Shown here: piece by piece, positions 3,865 to 63,856 of the stretch
Position numbering within the stretch: position 1 is the first letter of the stretch
Layout of the letters: every line of letters begins with the position of its first letter
Origin: Octopus vulgaris
Taxonomy: Eukaryota
NCBI GenBank assembly: GCA_951406725.2
Contig: OX597818.1
Coordinates: 103,354,001-103,418,000, forward strand
DNA: 64,000 nucleotides
Reading direction: 5' to 3'
The notes under the pieces: model-generated
What the model was told of the DNA's origin: nothing
Seen by the model: only the letters and a program-made list of their open reading frames with translations
Databases searched by the model: none
Translations under genes and position numbers: made by a program

Positions 3865-3908
<44 letters not shown>

Positions 3909-4718
3909 ACGAAGGCAGGTGGTGTACAAACAAACAAATGTATCAGTATAGCGCTCAGGAATAGAAAAACTCTTTTGCGTTTCGAGCCTACGCTCTTCGA
4001 CAGAAAGATAAACAGAAAAAAAGGAGAGAATATATATATATGTATGTATCTACATACGCACACACTCACACACACACACACTCACATATATATAGTGTAA
4101 CTAATGAGAATCTGTTCAAAATGCTTAATACCCATATTTTGGTTTGGACGAAACGTTTTATTCCTTAGCATAAGGTTAAACAGTTTCTTTGCGTATATTT
4201 ACATATATGAAAGCTAAAATACAAAAATGTCTTCACAAAACAAATGTTCCTCTACAATGGTTTTACTGAAAACATATTCGTGAATGTTTTCACACGCTGT
4301 GTTTTACATGCACAACACAAAAAAATGGAATAAAAAGATCACGTTACAAAAAGGTTTTCCTATTCATAAAAGTTTCGTGAATAAATTTCAGTGAATATGG
4401 TTGCCAAAAGAAATTATGTAACAGATGCAAGATTATATATAACTGACCGAGTCCATGGTTTTTGGTGTCGTTCAACCGCCCAACATGATGCTCTATTGTA
4501 ACTAAAGACAACACACAGTCACACACATATAAAAACCATATTTGTGAAAGGTCGACTCGCTTTCGACTAAATATACATGCATAAATATAAATAGGATATA
4601 TACATATATATATATAGTCCGAGAGAGAGAGAGAGAAAGAGTAAGACACATATATATATATATATACGCACACACATGTATACATACATAAATATACGTG
4701 TATATATATACATACATG

Positions 4719-6823: not shown

Positions 6824-9015
6824 TTATATATACATATATATATATATATACATATACATACACACACACATATATAATATATATATATATATATAATTGT
6901 ATGAGTGTGTTTATGTGTATATATATGTATATATGTGTGTGTATGTAAGCATGTATGTATTTATCTGTATAGAAACAGAGACAAAGTGAGTGACAGACAG
7001 ACAGACAGACCGAGAGAGCACGAGGTAGATATTGAGGCAAAATAATCAAGAAACGACATCAATTACAAAATTCAATACGTAAATATAAAATACACTTTAA
7101 TAAATATTAATTGATGAATTTTAACGTACTCATTTTCGCTTTGCCATTCTCACAGGAGATAATAAGAGATTGCTGCTTCTTAAACGGCTTGCTATTTAAA
7201 TAAAATTCAAAATTTTATATAAATGAATGCCAGATTTTTATTGTTTCATGATTTAAAATGTCAAACGTGAGATATCCTTTCAAATGGTCTATTTCGAGTT
7301 AACATATTCCTTTCTCCTTTAATTCTGATGCTGTTATGTAGTATTTTTTAAACAACTTGATGTATGTTATTAATTGTTGCGCAAGTATTTCGTGTTTGCA
7401 TAAACGATTCTTCAGTTCATTTAATCTATTCGAGCAATATTTTGAAAAGTGGATTTGCCACTTACAACTTAAAGTTTTCGTAATTGAACCAGACCTACAA
7501 TCGTCAAAATAAAGTGCCACCTCTTCTGCATTATCGTACAAACATTTTCTCTTTTGAACCGGATGTTTAAAACTTCGCTTACATTATCAAAATAAAAATA
7601 AAAAAGAAATCTTCGATTTTCATAGCATTCCATACACTGTTTTGTCGATGGAGTTGTAATTCCTTAACGGACACAGTTAAAATTGTATGATGTCGGTTTT
7701 GGAGATGAAAAATAAATTGAGGGCTTTAAGAGTGCTTGTGTGTCGCTCAGTGGTGAGCGTTAGATATAAACGGAACTGATGTTGTGATTTAGGTTTGAAA
7801 AATATTAAGTTTGTGAATGGGCGACACCAGTGGGGAATTCATGTATCAGCTAAGATTAGTTGAGGATATTGAACTGACACATGACAATTGTTTCAGGGTT
7901 TGTTGAGATAGATATTCAATCCAGGAGCAAATATGTTCGAAAATATTTTAAAAGTAAGGAGAATGATGAAACGAGCTGACGCTTTTGGAAGTATTGGCGA
8001 GTAAAAAACTGGAAGTCATCGTGGCTGATATACAGGTACGAGTTCTGAATGAGAAGGAATGGAAATTCAGATATGCACCGACACGGGTGAGCACTATCTG
8101 GAGTTGTGTTGAATGTTCATTTTGAATTTAACAGCAAGTAATTCTGTAAAGATCGACATTATAGAATTACCAGCACAATGTAATAACCAGAACGAGAAAT
8201 GAAATAATCAACCATAGCATTTATAACAGAAAGACATGAAATGGATGTATAGATGCGTTTAAATATTACCTCGGTGGTTACGAACAATGAAGTAAATTGG
8301 TGGCGAAATTCTAGTATTTTTCCACACCTATCTATTAATATTTTCAGTTTTATTTCCACGAATGTGCAAAAGTTTGATGACAAGAGTAATTTCAGTACTG
8401 TGATGGTAATGAATTTTCCCATCGGCACTTGCAGTGAAAGTAAGACGAGATCGAAGTTAGAAAGATGATTGCCCGCTTGCATTCGTATGAGCTAACATTA
8501 TACTCTTGTACGTGCTCGCCCGCAAGGAATTAATGCCAATACAAGTATGGCTTTAGCCTTAATAAGATAAGAAAGCCCTGAAATTATTTTGAGATACAAA
8601 ATCCTTTCTACGTTTAATAGATTATCAAATTTTACTTCCTTTGTAATCAGTAAAGCCATACTCTTCAATAGTCTCTGTTTTCTTGTTGTAAAATATAGTT
8701 CCAATAAGCCAACTAAGGTCGATACAATCGATTTTGTCTCAGCTCTACATGCATGTGATGAGAGATATCGTATTGATGTATATAGAAAAAAAATTAAAGC
8801 AGTTTCATTTATAATTTCCGATGTATATTACTTGCGTATACTAATTGTAGAAGAGAGGTTTTGAACAGACTTGTAGGGTACATCGTATAATTAAATAAAA
8901 CATCCACGTAAAAGAACGGAGAGTACCTTCAAGTAAATATTTAATATGGGAAATTTAAGAACCGATAGAAAAATAAGTCTAGTGTACAGTCATATTGTTA
9001 ATAATAGGTCAGAAT

Positions 9016-9230
9016 AAGGCGGCGAGCTAGCAGAATCGTTAGCACGCCGGGCAGAATGTTTAGTGGCATTTCATCCGTCTTTGCCCTTTGATTTCAAATG
9101 CTACTGGAGCCGACTTAACCTTACATCATTTCGGGTTCGATAAAATGAGTATCATTTGAGGACGAGTTTCGAATTAATGGACTTACCTCCTCCCCTGAAA
9201 CCACTAGCCTTGTCCCAAAATTTGAAACCC
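9016..9230 (+). mobile_element. SINE family 1 (diverged)
   Basis: AAGGCGGCGAGCTAGCAGAATCGTTAGCACGCCGGGC head and core. Confidence 0.8.
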
Positions 9231-10352
9231 AATTTCAGAATTCGAGATACATTGCTAAGTATAAAATATAGATCCAATATTGAGATTAAAATATGAAGAA
9301 ATATATTCTGAATAATCTTATAACTGGCTATTTGTGTTCCAAGTTTAATATTTTGGGGATAAATATCCTGACAAAACGATAACATAAGCTTTAGACACCG
9401 TTATGTTTAAAATATTTTGCAGATCACTTACATGATATCTACGACTTGTGACATGTTCCTTAAATGGTTGCTAATATCAAATATTACCAAACATTATATA
9501 AACTCTGGCAATCACACAAACCTACGGCTAAATGCTATTTGACCATACCCGTTTCATACTTCTGTTAATCTGCAAGCAAGTTAATGTTGTCCAAATTATT
9601 CTCAATTCTTTAAAACGGTGGGATCTGAAGAGAGATAACAATTGTCTTCTATAAATAACAGTTGTAGTGCCTGAATAAGGTTTCCATCGACAGCTCATTC
9701 AATAAATGAATATACTGACGCAATAAATAGAATAGTTTAATCATAGAACAGGCGATATGTAAAATATTAGGAAATGAATTCGTGATCTCCGCTTCTGTAG
9801 TTAAATATTTTATGATGAGAAGTATCATATGAAACACATCAACATATTTTATATAAAGAACATGCAAGTTTTATTCTAAATAATATGACGGCTATGTGCA
9901 GGAAGAGCATGAGAATAAATATTACTGAAATAATGGGGATAAATTACCCTTGATTTTTTAGAGGTATTTTTGCAGTTGTATATAGTATCACCATTGGCAC
10001 CATATTCATTCACATATAATATTATCTTCAGAATCATCATAATTTCTAAGTATACGGTGACGATGAAGCAAACAAATAGCTCTGATGTGATGTTGCATAG
10101 AGACGTTGAATTAGTGAGTAGATCTCCATCTGACAACGGATTTATTCACTGAATATAATTTGAAAAACGTGCATTTCCTCTGAAAAAATAATATCGAAAT
10201 AATGAGGATGACACTACGTAGTCAGAAGGTATCCTACATATATAATATTTTGATATTACATTGGTCAGTGAAGAACGATAAATTTGTTAATGAAATCATA
10301 AATTTATAAATAAAAGACAGGAAAAGTATCACTTTTTTCATCATTGAAATGA

Positions 10353-10778
10353 TATCTGCTCGAAGAGAGGTGATCTGGAGCTAAATAACTGAAGACTGAG
10401 AAACGATATTTTGATATTACATTGAAAAGATAATTAAAACGATAAATTGTTGTATAATGAATGATATTGCAATTATAGATACTTAAATGCGTAGAGTAAT
10501 GATGTGTTAGTCGTAGGTGGACAATCTTTGATCACATATTTCTTCATCCAAAAACGAACTTATCTGCTCGAAGAGAGGTGATCTGGAGCTAAATAACTGA
10601 AGACTGAGAAACGATATTGACACTTGATATACTAGAAAAGATAATTAAAACACTTTCAGTATTGTTGTATAATGAATGATATTGCAATTATAGATACTTA
10701 AATGCGTAGAGTAATGATGTGTTAGTCGTAGGTGGACAATCTTTGATCACATATTTCTTCATCCAAAAACGAACTTAT
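10353..10778. repeat. Tandem duplication, period ~208 bp
   Basis: TATCTGCTCGAAGAGAGGTGATCTGG at 10353 and 10561; both units end CCAAAAACGAACTTAT. Confidence 0.9.
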
Positions 10779-16535: not shown

Positions 16536-16937
16536 CAGAAATGTTAGCACGCCGTGCGAAATGCTTAGCGGTGTTTCGTCTGCCGCTACGTTCTGAGTTC
16601 AAATTCCGCCGAGGTCGACTTTGCCTTTCATCCTTTCGGGGTCGATTAAATAAGTACCACTTACGCACTGGGGTCGATGTAATCGACTTAATCCGTTTGT
16701 CTGTCCTTGTTTGTCCTCTGTGTGTAGCCTCTTGTAGGTAGTAAAGAAATAGGTATTTCGTCTGCCCTACGTTCTGAGTTCAAATTCCACCGAGGTCGAC
16801 TTTGCGTTTGATCATTTCGGGTTCGATAAATTATGTACCAGTTACGCACTGGGATCTATGTAATCGACTTTATCCCTTTGTCTATCCTTCTTTGTCCCTC
16901 TATGTTTAGCTCCTTGTGGTCAATAAAGAAATAAGAA
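16536..16937 (+). mobile_element. SINE family 1 dimer
   Basis: Two units joined by AAAGAAATAGGTATTTCGTCTGCC. Confidence 0.85.
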
Positions 16938-18679: not shown

Positions 18680-18682
<3 letters not shown>

Positions 18683-18866
18683 GATAGATCGTTAGCTCCT
18701 ACACGAATTTTTTTATCTCCTTGTTTTTTTCTCTGTATCTTTCTGTCGAAGAGCGTAGGCTCGAAACGTAAAATACTTTTTCTATTCCTGAGCGCTATAC
18801 TAATACATTTGTTTGTCTGTACTCCACCTGCCTTCGTCTTTTGTTTATTTTCGTAAACTTTCCCTA
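18680..18866 (+). mobile_element. ~190-bp hammerhead-bearing non-coding element, family A (other copies 58502-58700 minus, 3907-4030 minus partial, 62976-63083 minus partial)
   Basis: The two full copies share the 5' start ATGATAGATCGTTAGC and the 3' end TCGTAAACT..CCCT-(AT)n. All four copies share the body and abut microsatellites. Confidence 0.8.
18739..18774 (+). ncRNA. Minimal hammerhead variant (same family)
   Basis: cttt-CTGTCGA-A-gagc-gtag-gctc-GAAACGTA-aaat. Confidence 0.6.
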
Positions 18867-18976: not shown

Positions 18977-19170
18977 ACCGCGTGTGTACCGTTGGCGATT
19001 TTTTTCATCCGTCTTCCCTTCTTTGGTTCTTTCCTTTTTCTATGTTTATGGCGAAGAGCTCCGCTCGAAACGTTAAGCCCTCCTTCTTTCCTGAGCGCCC
19101 AATAATACTATACTTGTTCCACGTCCTCGCGTTGTTGTGTTTTATCTTTGTGTTTTCATGATTGGATGAA

Positions 19171-19226
<56 letters not shown>

Positions 19227-19335
19227 TTCATCCAATCATGAAAACACAAAGATAAAACACAACAACGCGAGGACGTGGAACAAGTATAGTATTATTGGGC
19301 GCTCAGGAAAGAAGGAGGGCTTAACGTTTCGAGCG
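18977..19335 (+). mobile_element. Hammerhead-bearing element family B with inverted duplicate across (TA)n
   Basis: gttt-ATGGCGA-A-gagc-tcc-gctc-GAAACGTTA (19044-19075, degenerate core). 19062-19174 is repeated inverted at 19223-19335. Confidence 0.7.
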
Positions 19336-20544: not shown

Positions 20545-20960
20545 AGACGGCGAGCTGGCAGAAACGTTAGCGTACCGGGCGAGATGCTGAGCTGTATTTC
20601 ATCTGCCGCTACGTTGTGAGTTCAAATTCCGCCGAGGTCGACTTTCCCTTTCATCCTTTCGGGGTCGATTAAATAAGTACCAGTTACGCACTGGTGTCGA
20701 TATAATTGATTTAATCCGTTTGTCTGTCCTTGTTTGTCCTTTCTGTGTTTAGATCCATGTGGGTAGTAAAGAAATAGGTATTTCGTCTGCCGTTACGTTC
20801 TGAGTTCAAATTCCGCCGAGGTCGACTTTGCCTTTCTTCATTCGGGGTCAATGAATTAAGTACTATTTATGCACTGAGGTCGAGGTAATCGACATAATCC
20901 ATTTGTCTGTCCTTATTTGTCCCATCTATGTTTAGCTCCTTGTGGGCAATAAAGAAATAA
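20545..20960 (+). mobile_element. tRNA-derived SINE family 1, dimeric copy with 23-bp TSD
   Basis: GGCGAGCTGGCAGAAACGTTAGC (A box), GAGTTCAAATTCC (B box) and central GCCTTTCATCCTTTCGGGGTCGAT. TSD taagatatttgtattttgaagac at 20526-20548 and 20958-20980. Confidence 0.9.
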
Positions 20961-21751
20961 GATATTTGTATTTTGAAGACATGCAATTAACGTTAATATC
21001 ATTCTCACGATTACCCTGCATTATTATCTCAGTAACCTTCAAATCAAAATAACTGCTGGTGTGTAAGAAATTGAAAAGAAATTAAATAAAATATGGATCT
21101 TGCATTAAAGATACTTACAATCTAAATCAACTAAAATCAACATAAATGGCAGTTATTCTGGAAAAAAATCAATGGCCTTAATGAACATCCCAGATAAACA
21201 GAAATAAGAAGAAGTAAATTTAATGGATTATTTTAGAAACATACGAAGCATGTATTTGCTAAATGATAGAATGCATTCTAGAAATCCAGTGCCTTTGTTC
21301 CTTTTTAAACAGCATGTAATATAACAAGTATTAGGTAATTACAATGACACGGGGAATACTTTCAGAGAATAATCTATTGATATTCTGATTTTGTAGGTGT
21401 GACAATATTAAGGAATCTGAAGTATCCTTTAATTAATTTAATCAATTGAAGCGTAACAGGATGCGTACAGGTTAATAAGCATATTCTGGAAATTGTGAAG
21501 TGATTCGGATTATCTTCAGAGATTAATTATAAAGTGTCAAGAAATTACTGACAATGAAGAAAACTAAATTCAACGGAAGGCAATGTAAGTGGTAGGAAAA
21601 TATAGGGAAAAAGATATGCGGGGGATGAATTAGTGAAGGCATCACATAATACATATATGTAAACAAAAGAATGACATTTGCACATATACATATATATATA
21701 GGAATATGTATGAAATCCTTGGTACACTTGGGTATATTTGAAAAAAATAAT

Positions 21752-58469: not shown

Positions 58470-58506
<37 letters not shown>

Positions 58507-58592
58507 AGAGTTTACGAAAAAAACAAAAGACGAAGACAGGTGGTGTACAAAACAACAGATGTATTAGTGTAACGCTCAGGAATAGAAAAAGT

Positions 58593-58628
58593 CTTTTACG
58601 TTTCGAGCCTACGCTCTTCTACAGAAAG
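58593..58628 (-). ncRNA. Minimal hammerhead variant (CUGU core, extra A after A9)
   Basis: Reverse complement cttt-CTGTAGA-A-gagc-gtag-gctc-GAAACGTA-aaag: stem I cttt/aaag, stem II gagc/gctc, palindromic ACGT stem III and GUA site. Confidence 0.6.
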
Positions 58629-58699
58629 GAACACAGAAAAAACAAGGAGAGAAACAAGGAGAGGAAAAATGTGTGTAGTGGCTAACGATCTATCATTGC

Positions 58700-59301: not shown

Positions 59302-60649
59302 TTTTGTACACAAATACCTATGCATTTAAACACGCATACCTATACGCAATGCAAGAATTCATAACTATATAAACACATCTAGGAAGAAGATTAAGAATTG
59401 TTAGTATCGTACATGACTTTTATCGAACCCCACCATAAATTTTTATATTTAACATATACATTTTCTTGTCACAATGTAAAGACACGACTCCATATAACCC
59501 TGATAAAGTGCTCACTCTGATATCACCAATGTATATTTTGTGTAATTTTTCAAACGATATCTTTTATAAGTTCTAATTCCAAAAGCGGGGAGGAAAATAA
59601 ACAAATATAACAGATATTAATCTTGCGTTGGCTTGATATATACAAGACGAAACATGACAATTGGTACCCTTTAAATATTCCTTACCATGTTTCTGTAAAG
59701 TGTTTTCTCTAATCATATTTTGAAGTGAGTAAAAAGTACTCGTACTCAAAAATGACAAAAAACAAATTAATATAGCTATACGTCTTGATTACATTGCCAC
59801 TCAGTCTTAATATATAGTTCATTATATCTAAGCAAGAATAATGAAAGCTGAAATAGTCTTCAGCAGAATTTGAATTCACAACGTAAGGTCGTAAAAAGTG
59901 CTGCTAATGATTTTAAATTCTGCCACGACACGGATCTAGCAACAGATGCAGCAGCAGCAGCAACAACAACAACGGCAACAAAAACAACAATTCTTTCTAT
60001 CGAAAGCAAAAGGGCTGAAAGTTTGAATGAATGGCTAGTCGATTGCCTCAGGATTTGTTCGTTTGATCATGAAAGGATGGCGTACAAAATCGACATCTGT
60101 GAAGTGTGGAGTGTGAATTCATAAAATAAAGAAGGATGATTCTGTCAGCTTCCTGCAATACCAGGAAATGGAAATGCCCTGATGCGGTATCAAGCTGTGG
60201 CTCTCATGGCTTCTGATCTTAATCGATTGGAAATGTTAATATGTACATGATGGTTGTTGGTGTAAAAGATGGGCTGCTGCAAATATCCTGCTCAATATCA
60301 TAGACTTGCTTGTCAGTTGCTTGATCTTAACTAGTTGAGCATGTCCTCTACTGGCTGACGATATGTGTATCACTGATTACATGCAGAAGTAGTGGTAGAG
60401 CATCAATGATCTGATGCAGGACCAGACAGTAGCTTCCATGGCTTTTGATCTTAACTGATTGGAGGTGTTATCATGTATATTCTTTTGTTCTGGTATAAAA
60501 GATGGGCTACAGCAAATATCCTGCTCAATTTCACAGATTTGCTTGTCAGGTGCTTGATGTTAACCAATTGAACATGTCCCTTAGTGGCTGACAATCCATG
60601 CATCTCTGATCACGAGCAGAAATAGTGGCAGAACTCATCAGAGGATATG

Positions 60650-62978: not shown

Positions 62979-63856
62979 GGAACGGGAAGGTTTACGAAAA
63001 TAAACAAAAGACGAAGGCAGGTGGAGTGCAAACAAAAAATGTATTAGTATGTCGCTCAGGAATAGAAATAAATCAAGTCTTTTTGTTTTTGTTTTTAGAA
63101 ATTTCACCACCAGTGGCCTAGCATATGTATAAAGTGAATAGACAACATGTTCTCAATATGAAATAGTGTGCATTTAAGCACAAAAGGAAACTGCCTTTAA
63201 CAGGCAGTTTTTATACGCTAGAAGAAGCAGTCAAAACGATCAAACCAGATTTAAGAGTAATTTTCAAAAGGAATGAAAAATAAAAACTGTTGCCTTGTTA
63301 TTTTTTTCCGGTCAGACATAGGTTTCTAAATTAATTTTTTTAGCAAATAAAGTAATTTGCTAGGCGAATTTTTCATCAGTGACCGCGCCATGACGTTAAC
63401 ATATAATTAAGAGATAATTAACACCTGTCTCTTTGTTATACATTATAACTTTTCAAATTAACTGCGCATGTGCAGTTTCATTCGGTAGCAAAATTAATAA
63501 CTGCCGCATTGATCATTTAAAAATTACTAAAAACATATACGTAAAATATATAGGGTAGTGAGTTTTTTTTACAAATTTCACCACCAATGACCTAGAATGT
63601 ATAAAAAAGTCAATAGACAGCATTTCTTCAATATAAAATTGTGTACATTTAAACAGAAGAGAAATTGCCTTTTAAAAAAATTTAGAAACCTAGGTCTGAC
63701 CGGAATAAGATGAAAGGTAAAAGTTATTATTTTTCATCCTTTTGAAGATTGCTCTTACATGTTGCCTAGGTCGTTTTGACTACTTCTTCTAGCGTGTTGA
63801 AGGTAGTTTTCTCTTGTGTTTAAATGTACACTATATATATATATATATATATATAA

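Follow-up and report, generated by a model that had tools for sequence, protein, structure and literature searches.

The short repeats considered here, found in a window of octopus DNA (the whole stretch that was analysed, 64 kb in length), carry a minimal hammerhead motif in which the A of core position 6 is replaced by U (A6U). The new observation concerns the history of this change: as read from the genomic copies, A6U is a derived state that persists into the youngest subfamily with the stems and the other core bases fixed, and it has a parallel in a second core substitution, U4C, in a sister lineage. The class of the element, an autonomous Penelope-like element (PLE), is ordinary, and the extra A and the palindromic helix III of the motif are published features of minimal hammerheads. 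The reading that we favour, with modest confidence, is that of an autonomous and likely still mobile PLE in which the fixed A6U probably makes a slow, mostly switched-off ribozyme whose fold is likely still selected. The role of the hammerhead in PLEs is at stake, as these motifs are nearly universal yet dispensable in one in vitro system. The octopus genome provides a natural experiment, with an ordered subfamily series, intact young elements and two independent core substitutions.

The element and its copies in the window

The focal copy (18680..18865, plus strand) belongs to the C7 subfamily and ends at the fixed 3′ end of the family, followed by (TA)n. It shares 95.7% identity over 187 nt with the 3′ end of an ORF-bearing copy, L061. 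Its minimal type I hammerhead (18739..18774, plus strand) has the architecture described in PMC4209133: the 5′ strand of stem I at 18739-42, the core from C3 to A9 at 18743-49 with U in place of A at position 6 (18746..18746), the extra A at 18750, stem II at 18751-62, G12-A14 at 18763-65, the palindromic helix III (ACGU) at 18766-69 and A17 at 18770. By hammerhead numbering, the putative cut site, GUA^AAA, falls at 18770..18771. In this copy G1.4 is changed to T (18774) and stem I is only 3 bp long. The same change, which breaks a stem I pair, recurs at many loci across several subfamilies and was found in 4 of 69 sampled copies.

Two further copies with the motif lie on the minus strand. The second truncated copy (58502..58696), of the A7 subfamily, has its hammerhead at 58593-58628 with an intact 4-bp stem I; the third, shorter one (3898..4022) has a decayed hammerhead at 3972-4007, in which U16.1 is replaced by C. 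An earlier sequence-only reading had placed the three motifs at these coordinates and strands, read them all as CUGU(C/A)GA-A-GAGC-GUAG-GCUC-GAAAC and noted the GCA triplet of the 3972 copy, and all of this holds. On paper the three are minimal type I hammerheads with a stem I of 3-5 bp, a CUGUNGA core, the extra A, a GAGC/GCUC stem II with a GUAG loop, GAAA, a loopless palindromic ACGU and a GUA triplet (GCA in the 3972 copy). The covariance models of Rfam gave no hammerhead match to 18690-18860 up to E=10; in a scan of the window, no hammerhead family was among the best 150 of 213 matches, those listed being of miRNA type and lying on TA repeats or on an inverted pair of sister-lineage tails. 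A fourth copy (62984..63082, minus strand) is represented by its tail only, and its 5′ end falls in an A run approximately at the predicted cut site, a single case with no genome-wide enrichment.

The sister lineage, recognised by a UCC loop, is present as a 3′ end with an individually decayed core and (TA)n at its end (18977..19173, plus strand) and as an inverted partial 3′ end (19222..19335, minus strand), which matches its partner on the far side of the (TA)n at 100% identity. The perfect inverted pair around (TA)25 (19075-19322) would form a long hairpin, which scores below threshold against plant miRNA models. Insertion into TA repeats, as first proposed, agrees with the position of the copies in (TA)n.

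Upstream of the motif, the frames for a reverse transcriptase (RT, with YIDD), a CX4CxxC linker and a GIY-YIG endonuclease are contiguous and end just before it. This contiguity, together with the unit of 4,482 nt and the fixed 3′ end, therefore identifies the repeats of about 190 bp, on sequence grounds, as the 5′-truncated 3′ ends (pseudo-LTRs, pLTRs) of an autonomous PLE of Neptune/Nematis type, and not as a SINE. A protein search of the genome gave 142 scored hits, many with open frames of more than 1,000 codons. Twelve long-ORF loci were selected from them and fetched; every one carries the U6 motif at its 3′ end, ten have a second motif 4.5 kb upstream, and all 22 hammerheads are identical and have U6. 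The intact ORF has 1,082 aa from the first methionine and passes the cut-off for RVT_1 (E=1.4e-7). It joins the RT to a C-terminal GIY-YIG domain as is typical of EN+ PLEs, the endonuclease match (residues 874-907, E=0.006) being below the cut-off. The linker, CSRPRCRTC, precedes an IIYCI..LYIGQT motif and corresponds to the CX2-5CxxC linker between RT and EN described for the Neptune/Nematis clade (Craig et al. 2021, PMC8557442), in which the element is provisionally placed by this linker type rather than by an RT tree.

Other properties of EN+ PLEs are also found, namely pLTRs in partial tandem, 5′ truncation and inverted partial copies (inverted pieces occur in L286, L306 and L324). The pLTRs vary in length and reach 99.8% mutual identity in L214; a short internal TA tract at the pLTR/5′UTR junction holds the fixed 3′ end, which the predicted cut site precedes by 110 nt. 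Their motif has the architecture of PLE minimal hammerheads, with a stem I of 4-5 bp, GAGC/GCUC, the extra A, ACGU and GUA or GUU, and the hammerhead is, as suggested earlier, of the PLE kind. Among the other searches, Pfam gave no match to three degenerate ORF pieces, and a PDB sequence search with the central part of the intact ORF gave none. In the portion searched of a recent Octopus vulgaris annotation, recently active Penelope families are listed and ribozymes are unmentioned (PMC13282606). Fragments nearby (L062:3513-5218, L061:1935-3493 and 8766-9500, L063:3122-4821) include a 251-bp tandem array and sequences that resemble a Helitron Rep/helicase and RTE-type LINE RTs.

The first reading had proposed a separate, SINE-sized non-autonomous element of about 190 bp that has defined ends and is moved in trans by the proteins of PLEs. 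The 5′ ends do cluster near the position noted there, and short internally deleted derivatives of 468-492 nt exist. However, a SINE would have its own 5′ end and be independent of an ORF-bearing body, and the 5′ ends of these copies are nested and extend, with unchanged subfamily marks, into the sequence that codes for RT and endonuclease, while the 190-bp piece holds no sequence that the autonomous element lacks. The element assignment depended on the existence of ORF-linked copies; these were sought and found, and they refute the SINE-like reading, to which we give almost no weight. Of its supporting observations, matching ends stand for the 3′ end and fail for the 5′ ends, nested as they are, and the lack of an ORF is true of the short copies but not of the family, which has ORF-bearing members.

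Position 6 and the order of the subfamilies

The pattern CTGTNGAAGAGC..GCTCGAAAC has 21,781 exact matches in the 2.8 Gb of the genome searched and its reversed control has none, so that chance does not account for the motif. When an exact 35-nt context is demanded, 12,892 matches are obtained, of which 12,493 have U6, 122 have A6 and 277 have C or G. The U6 share of copies in this context is thus 97%, at odds with the CUGANGA core of the PLE minimal hammerhead. With the core and stem II fixed only, the 21,781 U6 motifs compare with 6,025 canonical CUGA motifs, the latter mostly from other lineages; the reversed patterns again had no match.

Samples drawn independently of the core agree. Ninety copies, the first in a list of 20,661 tail-motif matches and all from contig C1, were picked blind to the core. 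U6 was found in 68 of the 72 that could be aligned; the 18 left out of the tally were mostly truncated downstream of the motif or matched too poorly. Of 30 copies picked by an upstream query, 28 have U6, one is without the core and one has it deleted. The earlier suggestion that U6 is the family state and not decay is therefore upheld by the genome-wide tabulation and by these samples, as is the variability of position 7, which takes four states among the sampled copies. An alternative register that restores A6 was rejected: it works for A7 copies only and would cost G8. In the contigs under the organism labels A, C, D and E no other letter at position 6 reaches 3%; their nearly identical position-7 spectra suggest close relatives, so the uniformity carries little time depth.

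Trees of the 3′ region, one of them built with positions 4, 6 and 7 masked, order the subfamilies as a ladder: A6U7 - U6U7 - C7 - G7 - A7 - C7 - U7. Copies of the old A6 group share 86% identity, old U6 copies 83% and those of the young U6 subfamily, which has the intact ORFs, 96%; between old and young U6 copies the value is 73%. The outgroup root fell mid-ladder on a long branch, and because such rooting is unreliable the direction rests on divergence and on the intact ORFs. Read in this direction, A6U is derived and is retained up the ladder to the youngest copies. Along it, about five changes fell on position 7 and two, both from A to U, on position 17, with H17 being A or U apart from one G and one C among 72 copies; the changes at both positions agree with what the hammerhead tolerates. 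In the trees, a small number of A6 copies fall among the U6 copies of the mid-ladder. Those with G7 and GUU that lie among U6 G7 copies (L258, L261-L263, L270, L271; 20 of the first 100 A6 matches) are possibly a small revertant branch that did not spread.

The sister lineage kept A6 in all 57 alignable copies of 70 sampled, and 39 of the 57 have U4C. The resulting core, CCGACGA, has 9,959 exact matches in the genome (e.g., L346-L425), and the C4 copies are more alike than the others, with mean identities of 95% and 89%. By this measure, U4C was fixed independently in the younger part of the sister lineage, in parallel to A6U. Canonical cores make up 6,025 of the 37,765 motifs with the shared stem II, and the two substituted forms (A6U and U4C together) 31,740. 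Standard CUGANGA descriptors miss both substitutions and would overlook 84% of the motifs with the shared stem II. A bolder reading is that PLE hammerheads are selected to be poor: two detuning substitutions were fixed independently, the catalytic guanines, the stems and the NUH rule were kept, and the detuned forms out-amplify the canonical ones, 31,740 to 6,025. We regard it as possible but doubtful. If true, attenuation would protect the uncut RT template and leave rare cleavage, gated by dimerisation or protein, for the making of circles, that is, a tuned RNA switch in the transposition cycle.

Conservation of the fold and expected catalysis

Columns that vary at the subfamily level (in four or more copies, CpG changes set aside) number 2 of 32 in the stems and core and 28 of 61 in the flanks among 69 core-independent copies (Fisher p=6e-5), the flank count being inflated by T-rich sequence prone to slippage and the tail also containing conserved blocks. 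The two varying columns in the stems and core are the marginal pair 2.5 and the recurrent G1.4T. G8, G12, U16.1 and the H17 rule (A or U) were constant at this level while the U6 copies diverged to 73% identity, and no second core change was fixed in the U6 lineage after A6U. Pair 2.4-1.4 is C-G in the U6 lineage and G-C in many sister-lineage copies; no compensatory stem change was seen inside the U6 lineage among the copies compared. The hammerhead fold is likely still under selection in the U6 lineage.

The activity of the core would be low, as published mutagenesis suggests and as the genomic ends, whose pattern the sister lineage shares, may suggest. Perreault et al. (2011, PMC3088659) reported that a natural A6C hammerhead of phage Bcep176 cleaves at less than 0.1/min and that U4C is a low-activity viroid variant. 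These are rare single examples of substitutions in the CUGA turn that leave low but detectable activity; the octopus differs in that A6U and U4C have both reached fixation, each in its own retrotransposon lineage of roughly 10,000 to more than 20,000 copies. In pairwise mutagenesis, CUGA mutants had low activity and were not rescued, with the exception of the C3/G8 swap (PMC9901934). Folding predictions point to a possible cause: the probability that positions 4-6 are paired is 0.52-0.92 in the four of six U6 copies covered versus 0.21-0.49 in five A6 copies, and U6 is predicted to add a helix between 4-6 and 15.1-16.2, which would close the junction in the monomer. In folding energy the copies differ little, by about 2.4 kcal/mol at most, and misfolding is likewise predicted for a sister-lineage copy with a canonical core.

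The closest published relatives are the minimal type I hammerheads of PLE pseudo-LTRs (Cervera and De la Pena 2014, PMC4209133). They share with the octopus motif the location in both pLTRs, the short stem I, the G10.1-C11.1 pair, the extra base at 9/10.1, the palindromic loopless helix III and thousands of solo copies from truncated elements, and they showed low dimer activity. The extra A, which the sequence-only reading had singled out, is thus present in the motif but not unusual. The core variant described there is a compensatory U3-A8, whereas the octopus A6U is uncompensated and occupies 97% of copies and the youngest intact subfamily. In the part of the supplement covered, the PLE minimal-hammerhead consensus is CUGANGAH and its three CUGU hits are not core sequences. 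Canonical hammerheads have been called universal outside Naiad/Chlamys in the work on Neptune/Nematis elements (PMC8557442), and the octopus core is non-canonical. In the open-access literature searched, which took in part of the PMC4209133 supplement, no PLE hammerhead with A6U was found, in keeping with the proposal of an uncharacterised core; the work of Lunse et al. (2017) lies outside that scope and could list A6U. Reportedly, the collection of Lunse et al. holds about 150,000 small PLE hammerheads.

A dead ribozyme is a less probable explanation that deserves serious consideration. In it, a master copy would have lost catalysis through A6U, the change spreading by hitch-hiking since cleavage is dispensable, and the sequence was kept as a protein-binding fold or an internal promoter. 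Core mutants of the anole PLE insert unimpaired in vitro (PMC11167929), canonical hammerheads are lacking in the thriving Naiad PLEs (PMC8557442), and the canonical CUGA turn was lost in each of the two octopus lineages. Against it stands the constancy of G8, G12, U16.1 and the H17 rule despite the 73% identity between old and young U6 copies, as well as the failure of any further core change to become fixed after A6U.

Copy ends, templates and tandem arrays

The 5′ ends of the copies are nested, from less than 20 nt upstream of the tail motif up to full length, on a fixed 3′ end. Among 90 copies, 52 begin 60-119 nt upstream of the predicted cut site and one within 5 nt of it; ends in old subfamilies are possibly underestimated, and the longest copies are lower bounds. 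In 86 copies bearing the start of the 5′UTR (drawn from 193 matches), the upstream tail junction is seamless in 85 and the whole upstream hammerhead is crossed in 73; one copy starts near the cut, and the upstream extensions reach at least 1,998 nt. As the 5′ ends cluster about 100 nt upstream of the predicted cut and not at it, and as most copies run through it, most templates of reverse transcription were probably uncut. This pattern is not specific to U6: 38 of 70 sister-lineage copies, canonical cores included, end 80-119 nt upstream and one of the 70 at the cut site. A religated circle would likewise be copied through the cut site. The absence of a peak there in both sets of copies is also what a dead ribozyme predicts, and such a reading would fit the location of the motif, some 60-100 nt past the inferred start site.

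Unit position 4277, 96 nt ahead of the cut, is the exact start of four copies; among those that begin there or close by, several are joined upstream to element body sequence. The position may correspond to the RNA 5′ end, a candidate transcription start. The exact end recurs at L239, L240, L321, L329 and L286, often with a jump into the element body upstream.

In the favoured reading, that of a mobile PLE with a mostly switched-off ribozyme, transcription would start within the upstream pLTR, some 96 nt ahead of the cut site, and the element protein would nick TA-rich DNA and prime reverse transcription internally at the pLTR/5′UTR junction. Priming at the upstream junction and run-off to the RNA 5′ end would give the abundant solo copies of about 200 bp, and priming at a downstream junction the partial tandems and the long copies. 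In the monomer, the predicted pairing of U6 with the helix III strand would close the junction; cleavage, if it takes place, would be occasional, e.g., for unit-length circles, and would depend on dimers formed through the ACGU palindrome, on the element protein or on both. A similar course is known for the Poseidon element PAc of Anolis (Frangieh et al. 2024, PMC11167929), where RT starts internally, targets are AT-rich, the main template is uncut, no ends fall at the cut site, and cleavage is protein-assisted and dispensable for insertion in vitro. The PAc hammerhead, which does cleave with the help of protein, overlaps the start of the ORF, unlike the predicted ribozyme of the octopus, whose position is about 750 nt ahead of the first methionine of the ORF.

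Tandem copies bring in a further explanation, a fully competent new core, where U6 is compensated by dimer context or protein and efficient cleavage yields unit-length circles that are reverse-transcribed by rolling. The seamless junctions (85 of 86) with their long upstream extensions would fit, as would the excess of U6 over canonical matches with the same stem (21,781 to 6,025), a full three-unit tandem and a 492-nt array of five U6 motifs with identical junctions. We consider it improbable: published A6 substitutions are slow (PMC3088659, PMC9901934), the junction of the mini-array lies at the inferred RNA 5′ end (4277) and not at the cut site, and the tandems can be explained without cleavage by read-through of tandem masters or by template jumps.

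The three-unit tandem (L288-L289, G000:C6:117389000-117407000) consists of full 4.47-kb units head-to-tail with a partial one and has four U6 hammerheads. The 492-nt array (L286, G000:C8:18599000-18604500, minus strand) and a second one with a 468-nt unit (L287) resemble retrozymes, their units being composed of the 5′UTR and the 3′ end of the autonomous element. Circles, template jumps or read-through would each account for full trimers and short arrays. Splicing was rejected for the 492-nt unit, position 4277 having no AG in front of it. Animal non-LTR retrozymes (PMC7229834; bioRxiv 10.64898/2026.07.22.740005) consist of short units in head-to-tail order that each bear a type I hammerhead akin to those of PLE pLTRs, an arrangement found only in the rare derivatives L286 and L287. 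The copies of the window differ from them in being solo, and the arrays in being internal-deletion products of the autonomous element with the U6 minimal core. Two-copy tandems of other repeat families also occur in the window, at 10353-10778, 16570-16933, 20594-20967 and 60205-60632, with periods of 215, 181, 183 and 233, respectively, those of 181 and 183 belonging to related units.
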